Assembly: GCA_965276665.1 (NCBI GenBank)
Contig: OZ255620.1
Location: 2,726,291-2,790,290, forward strand
Reading direction: 5' to 3'
DNA: 64,000 nt
DNA from: Acetobacteraceae bacterium
GTDB lineage: Bacteria; Pseudomonadota; Alphaproteobacteria; Acetobacterales; Acetobacteraceae
The notes under the pieces are model-generated. The model was not told where the DNA came from. It ran no database searches and saw only the letters and a list, made by a program, of their open reading frames with translations. Positions 457 to 60,702 of the stretch are shown one piece after another (the stretch's first letter is position 1; each line of letters begins with the position of its first letter). The translations under genes and the position numbers were made by a program.

Positions 457-1427
457 TGGAGGGCTGGATGGTCGTTGCGCTCTGGCCGCTGGCGTTCTGT
501 GGGGGTGTTGCGCTCATCGTTTGGGGTGCAGAGGCGTTCGCCGAGCATCTCGGCAGGGCTTCGGTGCGGCTCGGCGTCAGCACCTTTGCGCTCGCGCTCC
601 TGCTGGCTGGGGCGGAGCCCGAGGAGCTTACGACGGCAGTGGTCGCCGCGCTCCGCGGATCGCCAGGAATCGCGCTCGGCGATATCGTGGGCGCGAACGT
701 CGCAATCTGCCTCGTCGCGCTCGGCGTCGGCGCATGGATATCGCCATTGCCGTTCCGGGGCGGGATCATGCGCTACGCCCTGCTCGGACTTCCGCTCGGC
801 GCCTTGAGCGCGTGGTTCGCCTGGGACGGCAGGGTCGGTCGGATAGAGGGCGCGATACTGGTCGCCCTCTACGTCGTCTACGTTGGCGCGATCTGGACAA
901 CGGAACGCAAACTGCCCGCGCTCGGCGAGGTGGGCGAGCTGGCCGAGGCAAGGGAGGCTGCGGCGTCCGGGCACCCGTCACGGATCGGGCGCGATTTGGC
1001 GTTCGTGCTGGCGGGAGTCGTGGCCATGGCCGGGGGCGCCACGCTGTTGGTCGAGGCGGTCCAAAGAATCAGCGGCGTGGAGGCGACACAGACGCGGATG
1101 GGCCTGACCTTGGTCGGGTTCGCGACGGGTTTCGAGCTGGTGGTGCTGGCCTGGTCGGCGGCCCGGCGCGGCATTTCCGAGGCGGCGGTGGCGGGCGTCG
1201 TGGGTTCCTTCGCCTATAACGCGACGATGACACTCGGAGCCGGCGCACTCGCCCGTCCGCTCGTGCTGACCGACGCGGCGGTGCTGCATGTCCCGTTCCT
1301 GCTCATGCTCGGGTCGCTGGCAATCCTCATCCTCTTGGCCAGCCGTCGAGGCCAGCTCGGGCGCGCGGAAGGCGGCTTGTTGCTCGCGCTCTATCCCGTG
1401 TTCGTGGCGCTGATTCTGTTCAGTTGA
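456..1427 (+). CDS. Na+/Ca2+ exchanger family (CaCA) membrane protein
   Basis: 323 aa, multi-TM, GAEPEELTTAV and GDIVGANV alpha-repeat motifs; GTG at 456, alternative ATG at 468. Confidence 0.85.
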   Translation: MEGWMVVALWPLAFCGGVALIVWGAEAFAEHLGRASVRLGVSTFALALLLAGAEPEELTTAVVAALRGSPGIALGDIVGANVAICLVALGVGAWISPLPFRGGIMRYALLGLPLGALSAWFAWDGRVGRIEGAILVALYVVYVGAIWTTERKLPALGEVGELAEAREAAASGHPSRIGRDLAFVLAGVVAMAGGATLLVEAVQRISGVEATQTRMGLTLVGFATGFELVVLAWSAARRGISEAAVAGVVGSFAYNATMTLGAGALARPLVLTDAAVLHVPFLLMLGSLAILILLASRRGQLGRAEGGLLLALYPVFVALILFS

Positions 1428-1477
1428 AGGTGCTTGATCTCAGCCGGCCGATCAGAGACGACATGATGCCGCCCCTT

Positions 1478-2215
1478 CTACAGCATTCCCATCGCCCGCA
1501 ATGCCCGCGGCACCACGCCGATCATCGGCGTGCACTCGCGGAGCGCCCCGGCCAGCCCATCCCGCGGCACGATGCGCAGCAGATCGATCTCGCGGTCCGG
1601 CGCCCTGGCATGCGCGGCATGGATCGCCGCCGCATCCAGCCCCGTCTCCATCCGGCAGGCGATGTCGACCACATGCGTCCCCGGATGCTCGACCGCGCAG
1701 ACCGGATGCAAGGACGCGACCTTATCGGCGTCGAGGCCAAGCTCCTCCTCCAGCTCCTGGATCAACGCGGCTTCCAGATCGATCGCATCGCCCTGCACCG
1801 CCGCCACATCGACATTCCCGGCCGGCGGCAGCTGCCAGTAGCCGGGCAGATAGACCGATCCCGCCTCCCGCCGCCCCAGCACCACCCCATCCGCGCAGAG
1901 CAGCGGTCCGCACACCGCCATCGGCCGGATGCGCAGGCGCTCATGCAGGCCGGGCTCGCGCAGCTGCGCCGCCACCCGGCGATACTCGGTCCAGCGGCAG
2001 AACAATCGGTCCGGGGCGATCGTCTCGACGCTCAGCACCCGGCCGTTGAACAGGCTCGGCACCGCAGCCCGCGCCGCCTGCCAGGCGCGTTCCACCTCCG
2101 CCTCCAGGGCGGGCGGCAAATCCTTCATCTCCCCCACAACGCGTGCGACGACACCCGCTGCGAGCGGATACTCGAGCCAGCCCTGCATGATCCGCGCCCT
2201 TCGCTGCCGCAGCAT
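1478..2215 (-). CDS. NUDIX-family hydrolase-like protein
   Basis: 245 aa; NUDIX-box-like segment G..x..ALIQELEEELGL. Confidence 0.65.
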   Translation of the reverse strand: MLRQRRARIMQGWLEYPLAAGVVARVVGEMKDLPPALEAEVERAWQAARAAVPSLFNGRVLSVETIAPDRLFCRWTEYRRVAAQLREPGLHERLRIRPMAVCGPLLCADGVVLGRREAGSVYLPGYWQLPPAGNVDVAAVQGDAIDLEAALIQELEEELGLDADKVASLHPVCAVEHPGTHVVDIACRMETGLDAAAIHAAHARAPDREIDLLRIVPRDGLAGALRECTPMIGVVPRALRAMGML

Positions 2216-2281
2216 GCTCTAGCATCGTTGCCGCGCGGCCGTCCGCGCCGCATCCTGCCGGCCCCTTCGAAAGCGAGGCAC

Positions 2282-2761
2282 ATGAGCCTGGATCATTCTC
2301 ACGACCACGCGCGCTGGCGGGATGACGGCGTACGCGTCATCAAGGGCGACCAGCTCGATGCCAACACCGCCCAGACACCCGGCATGCAGCGCGAGGCCGC
2401 GATCAACGCGGCCCGGGTCGGCGCGCAGAAAATCTGGGCCGGCACGGTCAAGATCGATCCCGACGCCAAAACCGGCGCCCACCATCACGGCGCGCTGGAA
2501 AGCGTGATCTACGTCGTCCGCGGCCGCGCCCGCATGCGCTGGGGGGACCATCTCGAATTCACCGCCGAAGCCGACCCCGGCGACTTCATCTACGTGCCAC
2601 CCTACGTGCCCCACCAGGAAATCAACGCCAGCCCCGACGAAGTTCTGGAATGCGTCCTGGTCCGTAGCGACAACGAAGCTGTCGTCGTCAACCTCGACAT
2701 CGAACCCATCGAAAAACCGGACTCCGTGTACTGGGTCGACCCCATCCACCGTCGGCCGTGA
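2282..2761 (+). CDS. Cupin domain protein
   Basis: ATG at 2282 inside long ORF 1424..2761; GAHHHGALESVIYVV...GDFIYVPPYVPHQE cupin motifs; upstream part of the ORF is Arg/Pro-rich and looks non-coding. Confidence 0.8.
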   Translation: MSLDHSHDHARWRDDGVRVIKGDQLDANTAQTPGMQREAAINAARVGAQKIWAGTVKIDPDAKTGAHHHGALESVIYVVRGRARMRWGDHLEFTAEADPGDFIYVPPYVPHQEINASPDEVLECVLVRSDNEAVVVNLDIEPIEKPDSVYWVDPIHRRP

Positions 2762-2769
2762 AGGAAGAA

Positions 2770-2954
2770 GGCCAGGGGGCTCTCCCCCCTGGACCCCCGC
2801 CAAAGGCCGAGCCTTTGGACTCCATTACGGCTGTTTGGAGAGGGGTGGGCGACGAGGTGATTGCAACCGGTACCTGGCCCACCCCTCTCCAAACAGCCCT
2901 AGAGGGTTCTAAGGGCTGTGCCCTTAGCGGGGTCCAGGGGCAGAGCCCCTGGCC
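2770..2954. repeat. Modular hairpin repeat family A, full copy 1
   Basis: Nearly identical to 7638..7823; built from hairpins ccagggggctctcccccctgg, caaaggccgagcctttg, ctgtttggagaggggtgggc/gcccacccctctccaaacag, ctaagggcNNNgcccttag, ccaggggcagagcccctgg. Confidence 0.85.
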
Positions 2955-3805
2955 TTACCCTCCTCCGGCGGATGGCGTTTGCGCCGTTCGTGCCAGGCGT
3001 CCATCAGTTGGAGGACGGCGGCGGCGGTTTCTTCGATGGAGCGCCGGGTGACGTCCACGACCGGCCAGCCGTGCCGGCCGCAAAAGCGGCGTGCCCAGAG
3101 CAGTTCGGTTCGCACCGCTTCCTCGTCGACGTATTCGGCGTTGTCGTGTCGCATGCGGCCGTCTTCGCCGCCGGCGGCGAGCAGGCGGAGGCGGTGGCGG
3201 CGGATTTCGATCAGCGCGGCGGGTTCGAGGGTGAGGCCGATCACCGGGCAGGTCGGGGTCTCGAGCCCGGGCGGGTCGGGCAGGTTCGGCACCAGCGGCA
3301 CGTTGGCCGCCTTCACCCCGCGATTGGCGAGGTAGAAGGAAGTGGGCGTTTTCGAGCTGCGCGAGACCCCGACCAGGATCACGTCCGCGGCGGCGAGGCC
3401 GAGCTGGGCCTGCCCGTCATCATGGGCGAGGACGTAGTGCATGGCGTCGATGCGGCGGAAGTAATCGGCGTCGAGCACGTATTGCTTGCCGGGACGCGAC
3501 TGCGCCTGCTCGCCGATCTGCTCCTGCAGCAGGGTCAGCACGGGGTCGAGCACGTTCACCACCGAGACGCCGAGCCGGGCGCAGGTGGTTTCCATGTCGC
3601 TGCGCAGCGCCTTGTCCACCACGGTCGAGAGCACGGGGCCGGGTTCCGCCTCGATGCCTTCCAGCACGCGATGGAGCTGGAAGCGCGTCCGGATCAGGCT
3701 CCAACGGTGATAGACGATGGAGACGTGCTCGAACTGCGCCACCGTCGCGCGGGCGATGGAATTCAGCGTCTCCCCGGTCGCGTCGGAGACGAGATGCAGG
3801 TTCAT
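2924..3805 (-). CDS. Pyruvate,phosphate dikinase / PEP synthase regulatory protein (DUF299 kinase-phosphorylase family, RP001-like)
   Basis: [15 protein letters not shown]-terminus and [12 protein letters not shown]-loop; start taken at internal ATG (3805) of ORF 2924..3886; C-terminus runs into repeat A. Confidence 0.9.
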
Positions 3806-4154
3806 CCGCTGCGTGGCCGACACCGATCCTCCCGCCGCGAGCTCCGCGGATAGCGAGGATAACGGGGATAAGCGGGCAGGATGCAAGCGACGCGCGGATG
3901 CCGCGCCGGACAGCGGGGAGAAATTGGCCGCCGGGCGTGCGGAGGATCATTCGCCTTCTCACCATCCCGGCGCCGGGACAGATCCGAAAGAGCCGGTGTT
4001 TTCGGCGGGTTGCGCGTCTCTTTTCCTGTGGACGCGTTGGGAAGCAGATGATGCGACTCGTGTACCCCGTGTTCCACACCCCCTTCTGCTTCACCTACAG
4101 TTTCTCTTCTCTGACTTTATGGGTAGTGAAGAGGGGCGGCGTTCAGGCGGGTCG
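3806..4154. other. Candidate chromosomal replication origin (oriC) in the divergent DUF299-hemE intergenic region
   Basis: Synteny with Caulobacter/Rickettsia Cori (hemE / RP001 homologue); several 7-of-9 DnaA-box-like sites (cgaggataa, cggggataa, tgttccaca, ggaggatca); locally AT-richer tract 4090-4125. Confidence 0.45.
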
Positions 4155-5180
4155 ATGACGAAACAGGTGCTGCGGGTGCTGGCGGGCGAGGCGCAATGGC
4201 CGCCGCCGGTCTGGCTGATGCGCCAGGCCGGGCGCTACCTGCCGGAATACCGGGCGATCCGCGCCAAAGCCGGCGGCTTCCTCGAGCTCGCGCTCAATCC
4301 GGTGCTCGCCGCCGAGATCACCCTGCAGCCCGTGCGCCGGTTCGGGATGGACGCCGCGATCCTGTTCAGCGACCTGCCGATCCTGCCCTGGGCGCTCGGC
4401 CAGTCGCTCGATTACGTGGAAGGCGAGGGTCCCGTGCTAGCGCCGGTCCGCGACGAGGCCGGGCTCGCGGCCCTCGACGCCGGGATGGTCGCGGGCCGGG
4501 TGGCGCCAGTGGCCGAGACGGTGCGGCGCGTGCGCGCGGAGCTGCCGGAGGATTGCACGCTGATCGGCTTCGCCGGCGCGCCCTGGACGGTCGCCTGCTA
4601 CATGGTGGAGGGCCGCGGCGCGCGCGAATTCCCCGAAACCCGCCGCCTCGCCTATGCCGAGCCCGACCTGTTCGCCCGGCTGATCCGGCTGGTGACGGAG
4701 GCCACGATCACCTACCTGGCCGCGCAGATCGAGGCCGGCGCCGAGGTGGTGATGCTGTTCGACAGCTGGGCCGGGCTGCTGCCGCCGGCCTTGTTCGACC
4801 GCTTCGTCACCGGGCCGGCGGAAGCGATCACCGCCGCCATCCACGAGCGCTATCCCGGCATTCCGGTGATCGGCTTCCCCCGCCTCGCCGGCACCCAGCT
4901 CGGCCGCTACGCGCTCGACAGCGCGGTCGAGGGCGTCGCCATCGACACCGCCGCCGAGCCGGCCATCGCCGCCGCGCTGCTGCCCGAAGGGGTCGCGCTG
5001 CAAGGCAATCTGGACCCGCTGGCGCTGGTCGCCGGCGGCGAGGAAATGCGCGAACAGGCCGAAGACATCGCTCGCGCCCTGCGCGGCCGGCCTCATATCT
5101 TCAACCTCGGCCACGGCATCCTGCCACACACGCCGCCCGAACATGTGGCCGCCCTGCTCGAAATCGTCCGGAATGCTTGA
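4155..5180 (+). CDS. hemE: Uroporphyrinogen decarboxylase
   Basis: PVWLMRQAGRYLPEY signature near the N-terminus; 341 aa. Confidence 0.95.
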   Translation: MTKQVLRVLAGEAQWPPPVWLMRQAGRYLPEYRAIRAKAGGFLELALNPVLAAEITLQPVRRFGMDAAILFSDLPILPWALGQSLDYVEGEGPVLAPVRDEAGLAALDAGMVAGRVAPVAETVRRVRAELPEDCTLIGFAGAPWTVACYMVEGRGAREFPETRRLAYAEPDLFARLIRLVTEATITYLAAQIEAGAEVVMLFDSWAGLLPPALFDRFVTGPAEAITAAIHERYPGIPVIGFPRLAGTQLGRYALDSAVEGVAIDTAAEPAIAAALLPEGVALQGNLDPLALVAGGEEMREQAEDIARALRGRPHIFNLGHGILPHTPPEHVAALLEIVRNA

Positions 5181-5460: not shown

Positions 5461-6516
5461 ATGCCAAACCAGAAAACAGCCATCGTCCTGTTCAACCTAG
5501 GCGGCCCGGACAGCCCAGCGGCCGTGGCGCCGTTTCTGCGCAACCTGTTCAGCGATCCCGCGATTTTGCGTGTGCCGTTCTTCGTGCGGCCGTTCCTGGC
5601 CCGGCTGATCGCGAAGCGGCGCACCGTGCCGGCGCAGGCGAATTACGCGATCCTCGGGGGCAAATCGCCGCTGCTCGAGCTGACCGTGGCGCAGGGCGAG
5701 GCGCTGCAGGCGGCTCTCGGGGATGCGAAGGTGCGTTGCTTCGTCGCGATGCGGTACTGGCATCCGTTCAGCCCGGAAGCGGTGGCGCAGGTGAAGGCGT
5801 TCCGGCCGGATCGGGTGCTGCTGCTGCCGCTTTATCCGCAATATTCGACCACCACCACCGGCAGCTCGCTCGAGGATTGGCGCGATGCAGCGGCCCGGGC
5901 GGGGCTGGTCGCCGACGTGACCACGCTCTGCTGCTGGTATGACGATCCGGGGTTCGCCGCCGCCACCGCTGCGGGGGTTGCCCGGGCGCTGGTGGAGGCG
6001 CGCGCCGCCTTGCCGCCGGGTGTGCCGCTCCGGGTGCTGTTCTCCGCCCATGGGCTGCCGGAGAGCATCGTGCGGGCAGGCGATCCGTATCAGGGGCAGA
6101 TCGAGGCGACCGTCGCCGCGGTGCTGGCCGTGCTCGGCGAGCCCGGGCTCGACAGCACCATCTGCTACCAGTCCCGCGTCACGCCCGAACCCTGGCTCGC
6201 TCCGTCGACGGATGCCGAGGTCGAGCGTGCCGGCAAGGACCGGACCGCCGTGCTGGTGGTGCCGATCGCCTTCATCTCCGAGCACTCGGAGACGCTCGTC
6301 GAGCTCGATGTCGAGTACCGCCATCTCGCTGAGAAGCACGGCGTGCCGGCCTATTTCCGCGCGCCGGCGCAGAATGACGAGGCGGGGTTCATCGCCGCCC
6401 TGGCCGCGATCGCGCGCGCCGGCCTCGCTCGCGGCCCCGGGCTGTGCAGCGCGGAAGGCGGCCGGCGCTGTCCGGCGGACCGGACCGGCTGTCCGCACCG
6501 GCTCGGCGACGCATGA
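5461..6516 (+). CDS. hemH: Ferrochelatase
   Basis: 351 aa; AIVLFNLGGPDSPAAVAPFLRNLFSDP N-terminus and LLPLYPQYS motif. Confidence 0.95.
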   Translation: MPNQKTAIVLFNLGGPDSPAAVAPFLRNLFSDPAILRVPFFVRPFLARLIAKRRTVPAQANYAILGGKSPLLELTVAQGEALQAALGDAKVRCFVAMRYWHPFSPEAVAQVKAFRPDRVLLLPLYPQYSTTTTGSSLEDWRDAAARAGLVADVTTLCCWYDDPGFAAATAAGVARALVEARAALPPGVPLRVLFSAHGLPESIVRAGDPYQGQIEATVAAVLAVLGEPGLDSTICYQSRVTPEPWLAPSTDAEVERAGKDRTAVLVVPIAFISEHSETLVELDVEYRHLAEKHGVPAYFRAPAQNDEAGFIAALAAIARAGLARGPGLCSAEGGRRCPADRTGCPHRLGDA

Positions 6517-25933: not shown

Positions 25934-26009
25934 GGGGCCATAGCTCAGTTGGGAGAGCGCCTGAATGGCATTCAGGAGGTCAGGGGTTCGACTCCCCTTG
26001 GCTCCACCA
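25934..26009 (+). tRNA. tRNA-Ala (anticodon GGC), CCA encoded
   Basis: Hand-folded cloverleaf: acceptor GGGGCCA/TGGCTCC with the G3:U70 Ala identity pair, anticodon loop atGGCat, T-arm ggggttcgactcccc. Confidence 0.95.
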
Positions 26010-55247: not shown

Positions 55248-56126
55248 TCAGCGTGCCTCTGTGGTGAGCAGCGTGATCAGCCCGTCGAGCTGGTCGAAGG
55301 TGCGAAACCGGATCGAGAGCGAACCACCCTGCGCGTCCCGCAGGATCTGCACGCGGAGACCCAGGCGCTCCGAGAGATCACGCTCCACCGCTTCGGTCTC
55401 GGGATCCCGGTCCGCGCGCCGGCGATCCGGCGCGGAGCCCTCTCGCGCGGCGAGATCTCCGCGCTGCACAAGCGCTTCGGTCTGGCGGACGTTGAGGCCG
55501 CGGGCGATCACCTCGCGCGCGGCGGTCTCCGGCATGGCGTGGCTGAGCAGCGCCCGCGCATGGCCCGAGGTGAGGCGGCCCTGTTCGAGCTCATGGCGCA
55601 CGCTTGCGGGGAGGGAGAGAAGGCGCAGGGAATTGGCCACATGGCTGCGAGACTTGCCGATGGCCTGACCGAGCTGCTCCTGCGTCAGGCCGAATTCGTC
55701 GATGAGCCGGCGATACCCTTCCGCTTCCTCGATCGCATTGAGATCCTGGCGCTGCAGGTTCTCGACGAGGGCGGCGCCCATCGCTTCCGCATCGGAGAAA
55801 TCCCGAAGCAAAACAGGGATCTCGTGCAGGCTCGCCTGTTGGGAGGCGCGCCAGCGGCGTTCACCCGCGATGATTTCGTAGCGGCCTGGCTGGTGCGGAT
55901 GACGGCGGACGAGGATCGGCTGCAGCACACCATGCGCGCGGATCGAGCTGACCAGCTCCTCGAGGAGTTCCGGCGCCATGTCGCGTCGCGGCTGAAACGG
56001 GCCGGGATCAAGCAGGTCGAGCGGCAAAGCCTGGCTGCCGGGGTGACTGCCGGTGCTCGCATTCGGTTCACCGAGCAGGGCTGCCAAACCGCGGCCGAGC
56101 CGCGGTGAGGTGGATTTCGGGCTCAT
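55248..56126 (-). CDS. parB: Chromosome partitioning protein ParB
   Basis: LGRGLAALL, QPRR, IIAGERRWRA and HTH region motifs. Confidence 0.95.
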   Translation of the reverse strand: MSPKSTSPRLGRGLAALLGEPNASTGSHPGSQALPLDLLDPGPFQPRRDMAPELLEELVSSIRAHGVLQPILVRRHPHQPGRYEIIAGERRWRASQQASLHEIPVLLRDFSDAEAMGAALVENLQRQDLNAIEEAEGYRRLIDEFGLTQEQLGQAIGKSRSHVANSLRLLSLPASVRHELEQGRLTSGHARALLSHAMPETAAREVIARGLNVRQTEALVQRGDLAAREGSAPDRRRADRDPETEAVERDLSERLGLRVQILRDAQGGSLSIRFRTFDQLDGLITLLTTEAR

Positions 56127-56929
56127 CGCGCCCGCGCCCCGACGCCCAACTCTCGGGCGAGCACCTCGTCGGCGAGGCGGATATAGGCCTGGGAACCGGC
56201 AGATCGGGCGTCGTAAAGCAGCACCGGCTGCCCGTGGCTTGGGGCTTCTGAGATGCGGATGTTCCTTGGGATCATCGTCTCATAGACCTGATCCCCGAAG
56301 AAGCTGCGGGCGTCCGATGCGACGAGATCCGAGAGATTGTTCCGCCTATCAAACATTGTCAGCACGATCCCTTGCAGCTTCAGCTCCGGGTTCAATCCAC
56401 GCTTCACCCGGTCGATGGTGCGAACAAGCTGGCTGATTCCCTCGAGAGCATAGAACTCGCATTGAAGCGGCACGAGAACCGATTGGGCGGCCACCAGGCC
56501 GTTCAGCGTCAGCAATCCAAGGCTGGGCGGGCAATCGATCAGGACGAATTCATACGCCGATTCGGCCGCGAGAGCGCCGAGCGCGCGCCGCAACCGGTGT
56601 TCTCGGAAATCCAGCGCGACCAGCTCGACTTCAGCGCCGGCAAGGTCGGGATCCGCGGGGACGATATCGAGGCCAGGAATGGCCGTTTGGGCCATCACGT
56701 CTTGCAGCGGAAAATCGTTGACGAGCACAGCATAAATGCCCGGCCCGGCTTGGCGATCGATGCCGAAGCCGGTGGACGCGTTGCCTTGCGGATCGAGGTC
56801 GATAAGCAGGGTTCGCTTGCCGACGGCGGCCAGTGCCGCCGCAAGGTTGACGGCCGTGGTCGTCTTTCCCACCCCGCCCTTCTGATTGGCGATGGCGATG
56901 ATGCGGCGAGATGGTGTTGGTTCAGGCAC
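56123..56929 (-). CDS. parA: Chromosome partitioning ATPase ParA
   Basis: IAIANQKGGVGKTTTAVNL deviant Walker A. Confidence 0.95.
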   Translation of the reverse strand: MPEPTPSRRIIAIANQKGGVGKTTTAVNLAAALAAVGKRTLLIDLDPQGNASTGFGIDRQAGPGIYAVLVNDFPLQDVMAQTAIPGLDIVPADPDLAGAEVELVALDFREHRLRRALGALAAESAYEFVLIDCPPSLGLLTLNGLVAAQSVLVPLQCEFYALEGISQLVRTIDRVKRGLNPELKLQGIVLTMFDRRNNLSDLVASDARSFFGDQVYETMIPRNIRISEAPSHGQPVLLYDARSAGSQAYIRLADEVLARELGVGARAR

Positions 56930-57500
56930 GGGAGATGCCGGAAATGTGGAGAATTTGGCCAGTGGGATCGGTGCGGCTTGGGGTGATCGTCACATGCATG
57001 TCCCAATATTGTTTTGCCGCGACCAACTCGGCCGCCGCGGTTGCCCCTTTGAGAAAGAGGCAAGAGCCACCAGGCAGGAGAAGCGGCTCTGCGTAGCCCA
57101 GGAGCGTGTCGAGCGGCGCCAACGCCCGAGCGGTGACGAGAGACGTGGGAGATGCCGCGGCCTTCTCTGCCCTCTCTGCCCTGATTTCCGCCTCGATTCC
57201 GGTCGTGCGGGCGGCCTCTCGCAAAAAGCTCGCCTTGCGATGATCGGATTCGATCAGGATGACCGAGAGGCTGCCTGCAATAGCGAGCGGGAGTGCAGGA
57301 ATGCCGCCACCACTGCCGAGATCGATGAAGGATTTGCTATCGGCGCTGATGAGGGGCAGCAATTGAAGGGCGTCCAAGATGTGCCGCGACCATATACGCT
57401 CACGATCCCGTGTTGACACGAGATTGACTTTCGCGTTCCATCTGCGCAGCAGCGACGCATACTCGGCCAGACGCGCAATTGTTTCACGTGAAACAAGCAA
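56922..57500 (-). CDS. rsmG: 16S rRNA (guanine527-N7)-methyltransferase
   Basis: DLGSGGGIPALPLAI SAM motif; N-terminal MLVSRET encoded by the parS sequence. Confidence 0.9.
   Translation of the reverse strand: MLVSRETIARLAEYASLLRRWNAKVNLVSTRDRERIWSRHILDALQLLPLISADSKSFIDLGSGGGIPALPLAIAGSLSVILIESDHRKASFLREAARTTGIEAEIRAERAEKAAASPTSLVTARALAPLDTLLGYAEPLLLPGGSCLFLKGATAAAELVAAKQYWDMHVTITPSRTDPTGQILHISGISRA
57480..57495. promoter_or_regulatory. parS centromere site (perfect TGTTTCACGTGAAACA palindrome)
   Basis: Exact 16-bp consensus, read directly; lies in the first codons of rsmG. Confidence 0.9.
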
Positions 57501-57540
57501 CCCCGCCAGCGAGGCGGCTATCTCGGGATCGCTGGGTGCT

Positions 57541-59409
57541 TCAGTCAGCGCTCACCTCATCGAGCTTGCGGATATGGGCGATTAGGGCCGTCACGCCGGC
57601 TGGGGTCATGCCTTGAATTCGCGATGCCGCGTCGACCGTCGCCGGCCGAACCGTGCTCAACTTGTCGCGGATTTCGGTGGTCAGTCCCCCAATCCGGGTA
57701 AAATCGATGCTGGCTGGCACGATCACGGCGCGCAGCCTTTCTGCTTCACGGATGTCACGCTCTTGCCGCGGCATGTAGCCGCGGTAGGCAGCCTCGGCCT
57801 GCATGTGTTGCTGAACGCGTTGTGGAACCTCGGCCAACCAAGGGAACGCGGCGGTAAATTTCGCCCATGCCACGCCCGATCGCCCGATCATGTCGAGCAT
57901 ATTGCGCCGCTCGCCATCGCCAAATCCGGGGAAACCTTGCCGCATCCACCAAGCTGGGTTTCCTCCCTCGGCGATTGCGCGCGCCATCACCTCCGCGACC
58001 GCGCGCACAGACGCAGCCGTGGCCTTTTCTCGCGCGGGTCCCACGCAGCTCCAGGCGCGGCCTTTCGTCGCGAGACGCAAATCCGCATTGTCGCAGCGGA
58101 GCGACAGTCGATATTCCGCGCGCGAGGTGAACATCCGATACGGCTCGGTCACGCCCTGCGTCGTCAGATCGTCGATGAGGACCCCGATATACGCCTCGCC
58201 CCGGCCTAGCGTGACGCCATCCTGGCCGGCAGCGCGGCGCGCTGCGTTGATTCCGGCCATCAGACCCTGGGCCGCCGCCTCCTCATATCCTGTCGTCCCG
58301 TTGACCTGCCCCGCGAGGAACAGCCTCGGCGCAGACTTCACCTCGAGCGTCGGATGCAAGCTCCGCGGGTCGATGTAGTCGTATTCGACGGCGTAGCCCG
58401 GCCGCACGATGCGCGCATGCTCGAGCCCTGGAATCGAGGCCACCATCGCGGCCTGGCATTCGGCCGGCAGGCTCGTGGAAATGCCATTGGGATAGACGAT
58501 CGGATCGTCCAGCCCCTCCGGCTCCAGGAAAATCTGATGCCTTTCCCGGGACGCGAACCGCACCACCTTGTCCTCGATCGAGGGACAGTATCGCGGCCCG
58601 GTTCCGGTAATGCCGCCAGTGTGGATGGCGGAGCGATGCAGATTGGCGCGGATGAGGGCGTGCGTTGCCGGCGTGGTCGCGGTGACGTGGCAGGCGATCT
58701 GCGGATTGATGAGACGCTCCGTCAGCGCGCTGAAGGGTTCCGGCGGATCGTCGCCTAAATCGGCGTCGAGGCCGCTGCGGTCGATGGTCCGCCCATCGAG
58801 CCGCGGCGGAGTCCCGGTCTTGAGCCGGCCGAGCGGCAGGTCGAGCGCCAGAAGCGCGTGCGCCAAGCCGATCGCCGCCCCCTCGCCCACGCGCCCGGCC
58901 GGTGTCTGCTGATCGCCGATATGGATCACGCCGCGCAGAAACGTGCCGGCCGTGAGGACCACGGCGCCCGCGCGGATCACGCGCCCGTCGGCGCAGCATA
59001 CGCCCACGACCCGGCCGTTTGCCTCGCGCTCGAGCCGTTCAACCGATCCCGCCCGGATCGTCAGTCCGGATTGGTCGGCAAGCAGGTCCTGGACGGCCCG
59101 GCGATACAGTCCGCGATCGGCTTGCGCCCGCAACCCGCGGACCGCCGGTCCCTTGCTCCGGTTGAGCAGCTTGACATGGATGCCGGCGCGATCCGCCGCG
59201 CGCCCCATGATCCCGTCGAGCGCGTCGATTTCGCGGACCAAATGCCCTTTGCCGATCCCGCCGATCGCCGGATTGCAGGACATCTCGCCGATCGTATCGA
59301 TCCGATGCGTGAGCAGCAACGTCCGGGCGCCCACCCGGGCCGCCGCCGCCGCCGCCTCGCATCCCGCGTGGCCGCCGCCGATCACCACAACATCGAATGC
59401 CTCGCTCAT
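57541..59409 (-). CDS. mnmG: tRNA uridine 5-carboxymethylaminomethyl modification enzyme MnmG (GidA)
   Basis: [17 protein letters not shown]-terminus; 622 aa. Confidence 0.97.
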
Positions 59410-59412
59410 AGC

Positions 59413-60702
59413 CTATTTCCCGATGCAGAATCGGCTGAAGATCGTGTCCAGAATATCCTCGGACGTAATCTCCCCGGTCAATCCGCCAAGCGCGTGCAGC
59501 GCCCGACGAAGATGCTCGGCCCGCAACTCGGCCAGAGCCGTGTCGGACACATCGCGCAATTCCGTCAATGCGGATTCTAGATGGAGCCGATGCCGCGTCC
59601 TGGTGAGCGGCGGCGACCCGTCTTGCGCCACCGTCTTCCTGGCAGCCTCACCGAGGATACGCCTGAGATCCGGCAAGCCGGCGCCAGTCACCGTACTGAC
59701 GCCAATCGCGTTCGGCGAGGCCGGCGGCGCGAGATCAATCTTGTTCGCCACGACAAGCGCAGTCGGATAAGCCATGTCACGTCGCATATCGTCGATCACC
59801 TCGATGATAAGATCGGCATCTTCTGCTCGTCCGCGGGCTCGCCGAATGCCTTCCATCTCGATCTCATCGCCTCCCTCGCGAAGTCCGGCGGTGTCGACAA
59901 GCGTCACCGGCATACCTCCCAACTCCAACCTAGCCTCCAGCGGATCCCGGGTCGTGCCCGAAGTGGAAGACACGATCGCCACGTCACGACCAGCCAATGC
60001 ATTGACAAGGCTAGATTTCCCGACGTTGGGGGCGCCCACCACGGCAAACACGAGACCATCCCGGATTCGCTCACCGCACCCGCTATCATCCAGATGAGCC
60101 GCGAGCGCAGCCGCGACCGCGGCGGCATCGTCGATCACCCGACCACGCTCGGGCGCAGGGACTTCATCATCGGAAAAATCGATCATGGCTTCCTGCTCGG
60201 CCAGGATTTCCCGCACCTTCCCGCTCCAGCCCCGATAGAGCGCGCCCAGCGCGCCTTCCATTTGCCGCAAGGCCTGTCGCCGCTGCGTCCCTGTTTCCGC
60301 CTCCACCAGATCCGCCACGCCCTCGGCCTCGAGCAGGTCCATCCGGCCGTTGAGGAAGGCCCGGCGGGTGAACTCGCCCGGGTCGGCGATCCGGAGCCCG
60401 GCCGCGCGCAGCGTCTCGGCCACAGCGTTCAGCACGCCTTGACTCCCATGCAGGTGCAGCTCGGCCGTATCCTCGCCCGTGTAGCTTCCTGGGGCCGGAA
60501 ACCAGAGCACCAGGCCGCGGTCCAGCACGTCGCCGTCAGCGCCCCGCAGGGTTCGCAGCGACGCGCGGCGCGGCGGCGGACGCTTGCCGCAGAGGCGATC
60601 GAGCGTCGCGCCGCTCGTCGGCCCGCTGATCCGCATCACCGCGACGGAAGCCCGGCCGGCGCCGCTGGCCACCGCGAAGATCGTTTCTCGCTCCATCCGC
60701 AC
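59413..60702 (-). CDS. mnmE: tRNA modification GTPase MnmE (TrmE)
   Basis: TIFAVASG N-terminus, [11 protein letters not shown]1, DTAG G3, C-terminal CIGK. Confidence 0.95.

Follow-up and report, generated by a model that had tools for sequence, protein, structure and literature searches.

Conserved blocks upstream of hemE support a predicted chromosomal origin of replication in an Acetobacteraceae genome

Introduction

The chromosomal origin of Caulobacter crescentus, Cori, has been mapped experimentally at hemE and duf299 (CCNA_00001), and initiation there requires transcription from a hemE promoter (PMC6393856). Origins have also been predicted at hemE in Rickettsia prowazekii and the Wolbachia group, with COG1806 as the ancestral partner gene (Brassinga 2001/2002; Ioannidis 2007, PMC1914354), and between yqfL and hemE in Azospirillum baldaniorum Sp245 (bioRxiv 10.64898/2026.09.14.751567; DoriC entry cited there). 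Here, we analysed the spacer between a divergent DUF299 gene and hemE in the genome of an Acetobacteraceae bacterium (5,050,355 bp in one contig, approximately 69% GC). The spacer lies in a stretch of 64,000 nucleotides (genome positions 2,726,291-2,790,290) that we refer to as the window, and positions given without further specification are those of the window. A sequence-only reading of this stretch had proposed that the spacer is the chromosomal origin of replication (oriC), drawing a parallel to Caulobacter and Rickettsia.

Our analysis supports this proposal. The spacer occupies the position of the mapped Cori and of the Rickettsia and Azospirillum predictions (PMC6393856, PMC1914354, bioRxiv 10.64898/2026.09.14.751567), and its box-like motifs are conserved in position in approximately 80 genomes of the family. 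We therefore consider it very probable, from the comparison of sequences, that the spacer is an oriC of the known hemE-linked alphaproteobacterial type.

Results

Conservation of the region upstream of hemE

The spacer (3806-4154) corresponds to genome positions 2,730,096-2,730,444 and has a GC content of 64%, compared with 69% for the genome. The divergent DUF299 and hemE genes around 349 bp that the sequence-only reading had described are borne out by the Pfam match of the former (PF03618, E 4e-83) and by the hemE start at 4155. The DUF299 gene forms the left boundary and is transcribed away from the spacer, and its product can be aligned with those of relatives from residue 1.

We compared the hemE loci of 30 relatives and of 80 more genomes from public sources, 110 in total, and calculated motif statistics over 80 non-identical Acetobacteraceae-type spacers. 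The divergent DUF299-hemE pair is kept in 83 of the 110 loci. Read towards hemE, the family spacers show a common order of blocks, starting with GAGGATA(A/G)CGGGGATAA (the double box GAGGATARCGGGGATAA) and followed by CGGGGATAAC approximately 45 bp further on, GGGAT/GGGAC, GGTTG, cTGTGGAc, GGGTACCCC, a gap of 1-2 nt, TTATCCACAGG, approximately 25 nt with a nearly G-free top strand and, finally, a T-rich stretch that reaches to hemE.

The positions of these blocks relative to the hemE ATG are well defined. CGGGGATAA is present in 57 of the 80 spacers and the double box, searched as GGATA[AG]CGGGGAT, in 51 of the 80 at -260 to -320, while TGTGGA peaks across the family at -100 to -140. TCCACA has a peak at a set distance from the ATG as well. 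GGTACC occurs 52 times in the spacers at -60 to -120, and GGGTACCCC is found in 26 of the 80 spacers. The perfect DnaA box TTATCCACA was found ten times across the 80 spacers, and nine of these copies are located at -60 to -100, which is the position of TGTTCCACA in the spacer analysed here. Motif orientation is fixed across the family as well (145 occurrences of GGGGAT vs 17 of ATCCCC), and GGTACC starts exactly 12 nt 5' of TCCACA in most family loci, those without DUF299 included.

In a relative of the same genus, DUF299 is no longer located beside hemE. The boxes, the GGGGTACCC-TTTCCACAG module and the AT tract are still present there within 390 bp upstream of hemE. Of the other loci that lack DUF299, approximately half likewise have GGTACC exactly 12 nt ahead of TCCACA. 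Because the boxes persist upstream of hemE where DUF299 was lost, the element travels with hemE.

Taken as evidence for a predicted origin, the comparative data are the strongest: the positions are conserved between genomes whose flanking proteins share no more than about 60% identity.

DnaA-box-like motifs in the spacer

Boxes were scored against TTATCCACA, with TGATCCACA as the Caulobacter G-box. Between 3845 and 4078, three boxes reach 7/9 matches and three to four reach 6/9 (Table 1). Conservation within the spacer is highest at the double box (3854-3871), whose two halves, CGAGGATAA and CGGGGATAA, match TTATCCACA at 7/9 each on the minus strand and obtained weight-matrix scores of 13.9 and 14.2 bits. 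The columns of the preceding unit (3845-3853) are not conserved in the family alignment, and the column at 3941-3949 is moderately conserved as GGGAT/GGGAC. The units of the GGATR ladder start at 3848, 3857, 3866 and 3879, with a fifth at 3896. The motif GGGTACCCC is not a DnaA box and is a putative site for another binding partner.

These results refine the motif list of the sequence-only reading. The boxes that it placed at 3854 and 3863 stand with 7/9 matches each, as does its four-fold GGATR ladder at 3848-3884, to which the unit at 3896 is added. The box at 3941, also given as 7/9, matches TTATCCACA at 6/9, and TgtTCCACA retains its 7/9 matches at 4070-4078 instead of 4069. The conserved boxes TGTGGACGC (4027-4035) and CGGGGAGAA (3914-3922) and the motif GTGTACCCC (4060-4068) were absent from that list.

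We then asked how rare such motifs are within the genome itself. The spacer contains three boxes with at most two mismatches, and 0.7% of the 400-bp windows of the genome reach the same count. Likewise, a weight matrix built from the boxes of relatives did not single out the spacer in this 69% GC genome, as other loci yielded equal or higher counts. The arrangement of the boxes is more distinctive: the genome of 5.05 Mb contains a single copy of the tandem GGATAA-N3-GGATAA, against an expectation of 0.03, and a triple GGATA ladder with a period of 9 bp is found nowhere else in it. When a strict box was defined as TTATCC[ACT]C or T[TG][AT]TCCACA, the spacer was the sole cluster of three such boxes within 350 bp in the genome.

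Pairs of DnaA boxes were also noticed in short gaps beside tRNA genes, with CCTGTGGAACACAGGGGATAATCC at approximately 878,920-878,950 of the genome between two tRNA genes and TGTGGATAAAATGAGC at 4,548,039 beside another. These two-box loci at 878.9 kb and 4.548 Mb were rejected as origins because short gaps next to tRNA genes are not origin-like.

The AT-rich tract and regulatory features

The relatively AT-rich stretch that the sequence-only reading had noted before hemE is present, with 44-50% GC. The 50-bp GC minimum within 4085-4140 is 44%, and only 0.36% of the 50-bp windows of the genome are equally or more AT-rich. In 47 aligned relatives, G is nearly absent for approximately 25 nt past the box, and a T-rich stretch follows up to the hemE start. 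GANTC is found in the AT tract of 56 of the 80 relatives; the spacer analysed here has one copy at 4055-4059, upstream of the GTACCCC motif.

A search for the CtrA site TTAA-N7-TTAA gave no match in the spacer, and there is no TTAA whatsoever in 3700-4300. Full CtrA sites are present in 4 of the 80 family spacers; such sites mark Caulobacter-style regulation and not origin status as such. No terminator match was obtained in 3600-4400. In position, box cluster and AT content, the spacer agrees with what is described for predicted hemE-linked origins (PMC1914354).

Genome-wide replication signals

The cumulative GC skew peaks sharply at approximately 89 kb and has a flat bottom at 2.6-3.05 Mb that encloses the spacer (2.730 Mb). 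Its raw values are lowest at 3,039,680, and the minimum shifts to 2,708,631 after detrending; at higher resolution, the curve has two minima of equal depth (2.709-2.715 and 3.039 Mb), and the spacer is 15-21 kb away from the first. Thus, the GC-skew check suggested in the sequence-only reading places the spacer inside the minimum zone, with the exact minimum spread over approximately 400 kb. The GGGNAGGG skew and skewed 8-mers, the latter trained outside the test zone, put the terminus at 79-84 kb and gave minima wandering between 2.71 and 3.05 Mb. Third-codon-position skew, calculated with a crude gene set, likewise gave a flat curve, lowest at 2.90 Mb, and an equally crude gene-strand bias had its minimum at approximately 2.56 Mb. 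The rRNA operons at 2.463 Mb (minus strand) and 3.603 Mb (plus strand) point away from the 2.6-3.05 Mb zone and, with the gene-strand bias, independently confirm the polarity. Together, GC skew, GGGNAGGG skew, gene orientation, rRNA operons and parS place the origin in this zone and no finer.

The raw skew minimum at 3.04 Mb was considered as an origin and rejected, as the apparent cluster of boxes falls within GATC-rich sequence that encodes a membrane protein. A search for a dif site with the E. coli-type consensus gave no convincing match near the terminus. Both this genome and a complete relative, G008 (3.65-3.88 Mb), combine a flat plateau of 200-400 kb with a sharp terminus, which suggests that in this family rearrangements or gains of islands are frequent close to the origin. 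The orientation of the par operon likewise points to local rearrangements, which may have contributed to the flatness of the skew.

The par operon and dnaA

The sequence-only reading had pointed to a parAB/parS block approximately 53 kb away, and a perfect, unique parS is indeed located 53.3 kb from the spacer. This site marks the origin-proximal centromere. The dnaA open reading frame (genome positions 892,414-893,850, minus strand, with a Pfam match at 892,951-893,421) is located downstream of rpsT and 1.84 Mb from the spacer, in mid-replichore and with no skew switch. The spacer between rpsT and dnaA is AT-rich, but neither TCCACA or TGTGGA nor a DnaA box was found in it. A skew minimum next to dnaA, named in the sequence-only reading as the observation that would speak against its proposal, was accordingly not seen, with no inflection at the gene and no boxes upstream of it.

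The distance between dnaA and hemE varies among the complete relatives. It amounts to 2.17 of 4.53 Mb in G008, where dnaA is near the terminus, and to 1.35 of 2.70 Mb in G017, where the two genes are antipodal. The corresponding distances are 1.25 Mb in G010, 1.8 Mb in G024 and 0.117 Mb in G028.

A perfect DnaA box at a second locus

Outside the window, 81 kb to the right of the hemE spacer, a second spacer (genome position 2,811,502) separates a plsC-like acyltransferase gene from a DUF2125 gene. This second spacer contains a perfect TGTGGATAA with TGTGG 3 bp later, and a one-mismatch box 256 bp further on, with moderately AT-rich DNA between. The perfect box belongs to the 17-mer TGTGGATAACTCTGTGG (2,811,502-2,811,518), which is located at the stop codon of the plsC-like gene and upstream of the DUF2125 gene. 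When at most one mismatch was allowed, 24 of 41 family genomes had between one and four copies of this 17-mer, and the controls had none. The 17-mer is not syntenic with hemE, and several genomes carry 2-4 copies.

The complete relative G008 (4.53 Mb) allows the two loci to be told apart. There, GGGCAGGG is strongly forward-biased at 0-1.35 Mb, and its reverse complement becomes abruptly dense from 1.536 Mb. Because the GGGCAGGG bias converges there, the terminus of G008 is placed at approximately 1.46-1.54 Mb. In G008, the 17-mer at 1.633 Mb lies 9 kb from dnaA at 1.623 Mb, and both are near this terminus, the 17-mer at a distance of 0.1-0.17 Mb from the GGGCAGGG convergence. The hemE gene of G008 (3.795 Mb), in contrast, is approximately 30 kb from the antipode of the terminus and inside a local GC-skew minimum zone at 3.65-3.88 Mb, and the hemE spacer is the sole box cluster in the 400 kb examined around hemE. 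Judged from its distribution, the 17-mer may at most be a DnaA-related regulatory or titration/reactivation site and not an origin.

Flanking genes

The homologues of hemE in relatives, mostly metagenome-assembled genomes (MAGs), are at most 68% identical; the host genus is thus poorly sampled within the Acetobacteraceae. The host genome is a MAG, too, as the four public runs in which its sequence occurs are metagenome contig sets. In the same-genus MAG G001, residues 1-162 and 158-340 of hemE are encoded by separate, overlapping frames, which is due to a frameshift or an assembly error. The conserved neighbourhood in this genome is restricted to the inner hemE/DUF299 pair. On the corresponding left flank, Caulobacter and Rickettsia presumably carry a maf-aroE-coaE-dnaQ cluster. 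Here, the genes to the left of DUF299 encode a cupin-domain protein (1424-2761, plus strand) and a Na/Ca exchanger (456-1427). An Rfam scan returned nothing but a tRNA gene at 25934-26006 (66.9 bits), which borders a stretch of lower GC content at approximately 26-42 kb (59-66% vs approximately 70%).

Table 1. Features of the window and of the predicted origin region. Positions refer to the window; a dot denotes that no strand applies.
Feature	Position	Strand	Remarks
DUF299/PF03618 kinase-pyrophosphorylase gene (COG1806, yqfL/RP001-like), Kinase-PPPase	2924-3805	-	Pfam PF03618, E 4e-83, residues 3-265
Predicted oriC, whole divergent spacer	3806-4154	.	349 bp; family median length 322 bp in 83 loci
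CGCGGATAG, first unit of 9-bp GGATA ladder; weak box (CTATCCGCG, 6/9)	3845-3853	-	Lineage-specific
Abutting DnaA boxes CGAGGATAA (3854-3862) and CGGGGATAA (3863-3871)	3854-3871	-	Minus-strand read TTATCCCCG-TTATCCTCG
CGGGGAGAA, degenerate DnaA box, position conserved	3914-3922	-	Aligned block; 7.7 bits; relatives carry CGGGGATAAC
GGAGGATCA, weak box (TGATCCTCC)	3941-3949	-	6/9 to TTATCCACA, 7/9 only to G-box TGATCCACA
TGTGGACGC, DnaA box, TCCACA core intact	4027-4035	-	Minus-strand read GCGTCCACA; cTGTGGAc block of the family
GTGTACCCC, copy of family motif GGGTACCCC	4060-4068	.	Fixed spacing to TCCACA in relatives
TGTTCCACA, DnaA box nearest the AT-rich tract, sole plus-strand box	4070-4078	+	7/9; relatives carry TTATCCACAGG
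G-poor then T-rich tract, predicted DNA unwinding element, probably also hemE promoter and leader	4079-4135	+	40-bp GC down to 45-50%
hemE (uroporphyrinogen decarboxylase), right boundary	4155-5180	+	Homologues in relatives 58-68% identical
hemH (ferrochelatase), after hemE	5461-6516	+	Right of the spacer
mnmE-mnmG-rsmG-parA-parB operon, genes typical of origin region	55248-60702	-	Pfam matches
parS TGTTTCACGTGAAACA, perfect	57480-57495	.	Only genome copy with at most 2 mismatches; 53.3 kb from spacer

Discussion

The arrangement of the spacer suggests how it might operate as an origin. DnaA would fill an array of five to seven boxes between 3845 and 4078, most of which are low-match boxes of the form TTATCC(C/T)CG or xxxTCCACA on the minus strand. 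The last box (4070-4078), on the plus strand, would face the adjacent G-poor, AT-rich tract at 4079-4135. This geometry matches that of the E. coli oriC, in which the R1 box is located beside the DNA unwinding element (DUE). The DnaA oligomer would melt the tract at 4079-4135, which would adjoin or overlap the hemE promoter, and helicase loading would lead to bidirectional replication.

Several observations weigh against placing oriC in this spacer. Every box is imperfect, with 7/9 as the best match, and box count on its own is weak evidence, as the counts with at most two mismatches and the weight matrix leave the spacer non-unique. The AT-rich tract is short and, at 44-50% GC, counts as AT-rich only by the standard of this genome. 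According to the DnaA-trio rule, at least three NAN trios (consensus 3'-GAT-5') are expected within 16 nt of a box (PMC8287927); no canonical trio run follows the box at 4070-4078, nor was one found in the anchored alignment of 47 relatives. A match to a sigma-70-type promoter was not obtained in 3600-4400. The par operon, 51-57 kb to the right and on the minus strand, would be head-on to forks from the spacer. Nucleotide composition does not pin the origin to the spacer either, the skew minimum being flat over approximately 400 kb with two equal minima. Finally, the origin/terminus depth ratios in four metagenome runs (0.78, 0.88, 1.0 and 1.04) show no replication gradient; these depths, taken from clean contigs of the origin and terminus zones in metagenome contig sets with the organism at 10-50x, are too noisy to use.

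An improbable alternative is that the boxes are real but that DnaA only regulates hemE and/or DUF299, with the origin elsewhere in the 2.6-3.05 Mb zone, for example, in the plsC-DUF2125 spacer. That locus has the only perfect DnaA box of the zone together with the one-mismatch box 256 bp off, its 17-mer is shared by 24 of 41 family genomes and absent from the controls, a fork starting there would move in the direction of par transcription, and the skew of this genome cannot separate the two loci. However, the 17-mer of G008 is near the terminus, while hemE is antipodal and in the GC-skew minimum zone, and an element with 2-4 copies and no synteny with hemE is unlike a single origin. In addition, two boxes at plsC-DUF2125 contrast with five to seven conserved boxes at hemE, and no second strict box cluster exists in the genome. 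The AT-richer DNA at plsC-DUF2125 is on the ATAA side of the box, opposite to the arrangement of R1 and the DUE in E. coli.

It is less probable still that the motifs are operators of a factor other than DnaA, such as a heme/iron regulator at the hemE-hemH promoter, and that their likeness to boxes is coincidental. The spacer must house two promoters, neither GGGTACCCC nor the T-rich tract with GANTC is a DnaA box, and most boxes in this genome reach 6-7/9 only. On the other hand, perfect copies of TTATCCACA occur ten times in the 80 spacers, nine of them at the position of 4070-4078, and the repeat unit TTATCC(A/C/T)C retains the TTATCC half of the DnaA box. A series of at least five copies in one orientation along 230 bp is usual for a DnaA array but not for a dimeric operator, and the same gene pair borders the mapped origin of Caulobacter (PMC6393856). 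The view that the motifs are chance matches in an ordinary, slightly AT-richer promoter spacer could draw on the 0.7% of 400-bp windows with an equal box count and on the equal or higher weight-matrix loci, but it has a negligible probability and is effectively refuted by the family alignment, in which position and orientation are conserved in 80 genomes with flanking proteins that are approximately 60% identical. The double box, which is unique in the genome vs 0.03 expected, also speaks against it.

With the DUF299-hemE spacer as the preferred candidate for oriC, a more far-reaching and rather doubtful idea is that the Acetobacteraceae possess a distinct sub-architecture of the hemE type. 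It would comprise a fixed array of the TTATCCCCG class and, next to an unwinding strand that lacks G, a composite GGGTACCCC-N-TTATCCACAGG module, with GGGTACCCC binding a family-specific factor that replaces CtrA control; dnaA would be displaced to mid-replichore or to the vicinity of the terminus, and the 17-mer TGTGGATAACTCTGTGG would serve as a datA/DARS-like titration/reactivation site.

The analysis sets a predicted origin for an uncultured Acetobacteraceae genome in which a flat skew and a distant dnaA defeat the usual shortcuts, and origin calls by dnaA adjacency or by the raw skew minimum (3.04 Mb) could mislead here. The series GAGGATARCGGGGATAA, CGGGGATAAC, cTGTGGAc, GGGTACCCC-TTATCCACAGG and G-poor AT tract can be reused as a template when origins are sought in Acetobacteraceae MAGs or when growth is estimated from peak-to-trough ratios.

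Among described origins, the Bacillus subtilis-type basal unwinding system (BUS), which consists of a box pair, a spacer and DnaA-trios (PMC8287927), resembles the predicted origin in having a box directly beside a strand-asymmetric tract of lower stability. It differs in its trios, at least three of which within 16 nt are lacking here, where the strand past the box is C/T-rich and initially A-poor. As in the Wolbachia group (PMC1914354), the predicted origin stays with hemE when the gene pair is broken, which is seen here in the same-genus relative, and skew alone is insufficient in the Rickettsia and Wolbachia genomes, too. Those origins are AT-rich in absolute terms and have predicted CtrA and IHF sites, unlike the spacer analysed here with its 64% GC and no CtrA site.

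Azospirillum baldaniorum Sp245 belongs, like the host, to a Rhodospirillales-type lineage and shares the flanking genes, and both origins are predictions and not mapped. Approximately six boxes are present there, mostly in one direction with one reversed, and parAB/parS is tens of kb off, as here. The family is a different one, and the comparison covered the arrangement of the locus.

The resemblance to the Caulobacter Cori extends to the divergent gene pair, the AT-rich tract on the hemE side and the prevalence of weak boxes: Cori has two moderate G-boxes and five weak W-boxes, and the boxes here reach 7/9 and 6/9, several of them with a TCCCC core. In both, hemE transcription starts inside the origin, as predicted for the spacer analysed here, and GANTC is present, here once at 4055. 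The differences concern the CtrA sites, which are lacking here and of which 4 of the 80 relatives have one, the par operon, which is 51-57 kb off and inverted relative to hemE, and the family-specific GGGTACCCC, which abuts the box nearest the unwinding tract. In Caulobacter, the par operon is co-oriented with hemE and dnaA is close to Cori, compared with 1.84 Mb here. The location of the predicted origin is the one expected for the class. What is mildly new is the lack of CtrA sites, the GGGTACCCC module, the TTATCCCCG box class, the remote dnaA and the conserved 17-mer elsewhere; the find as a whole is sound but ordinary, one more case of a well-known class of origins.

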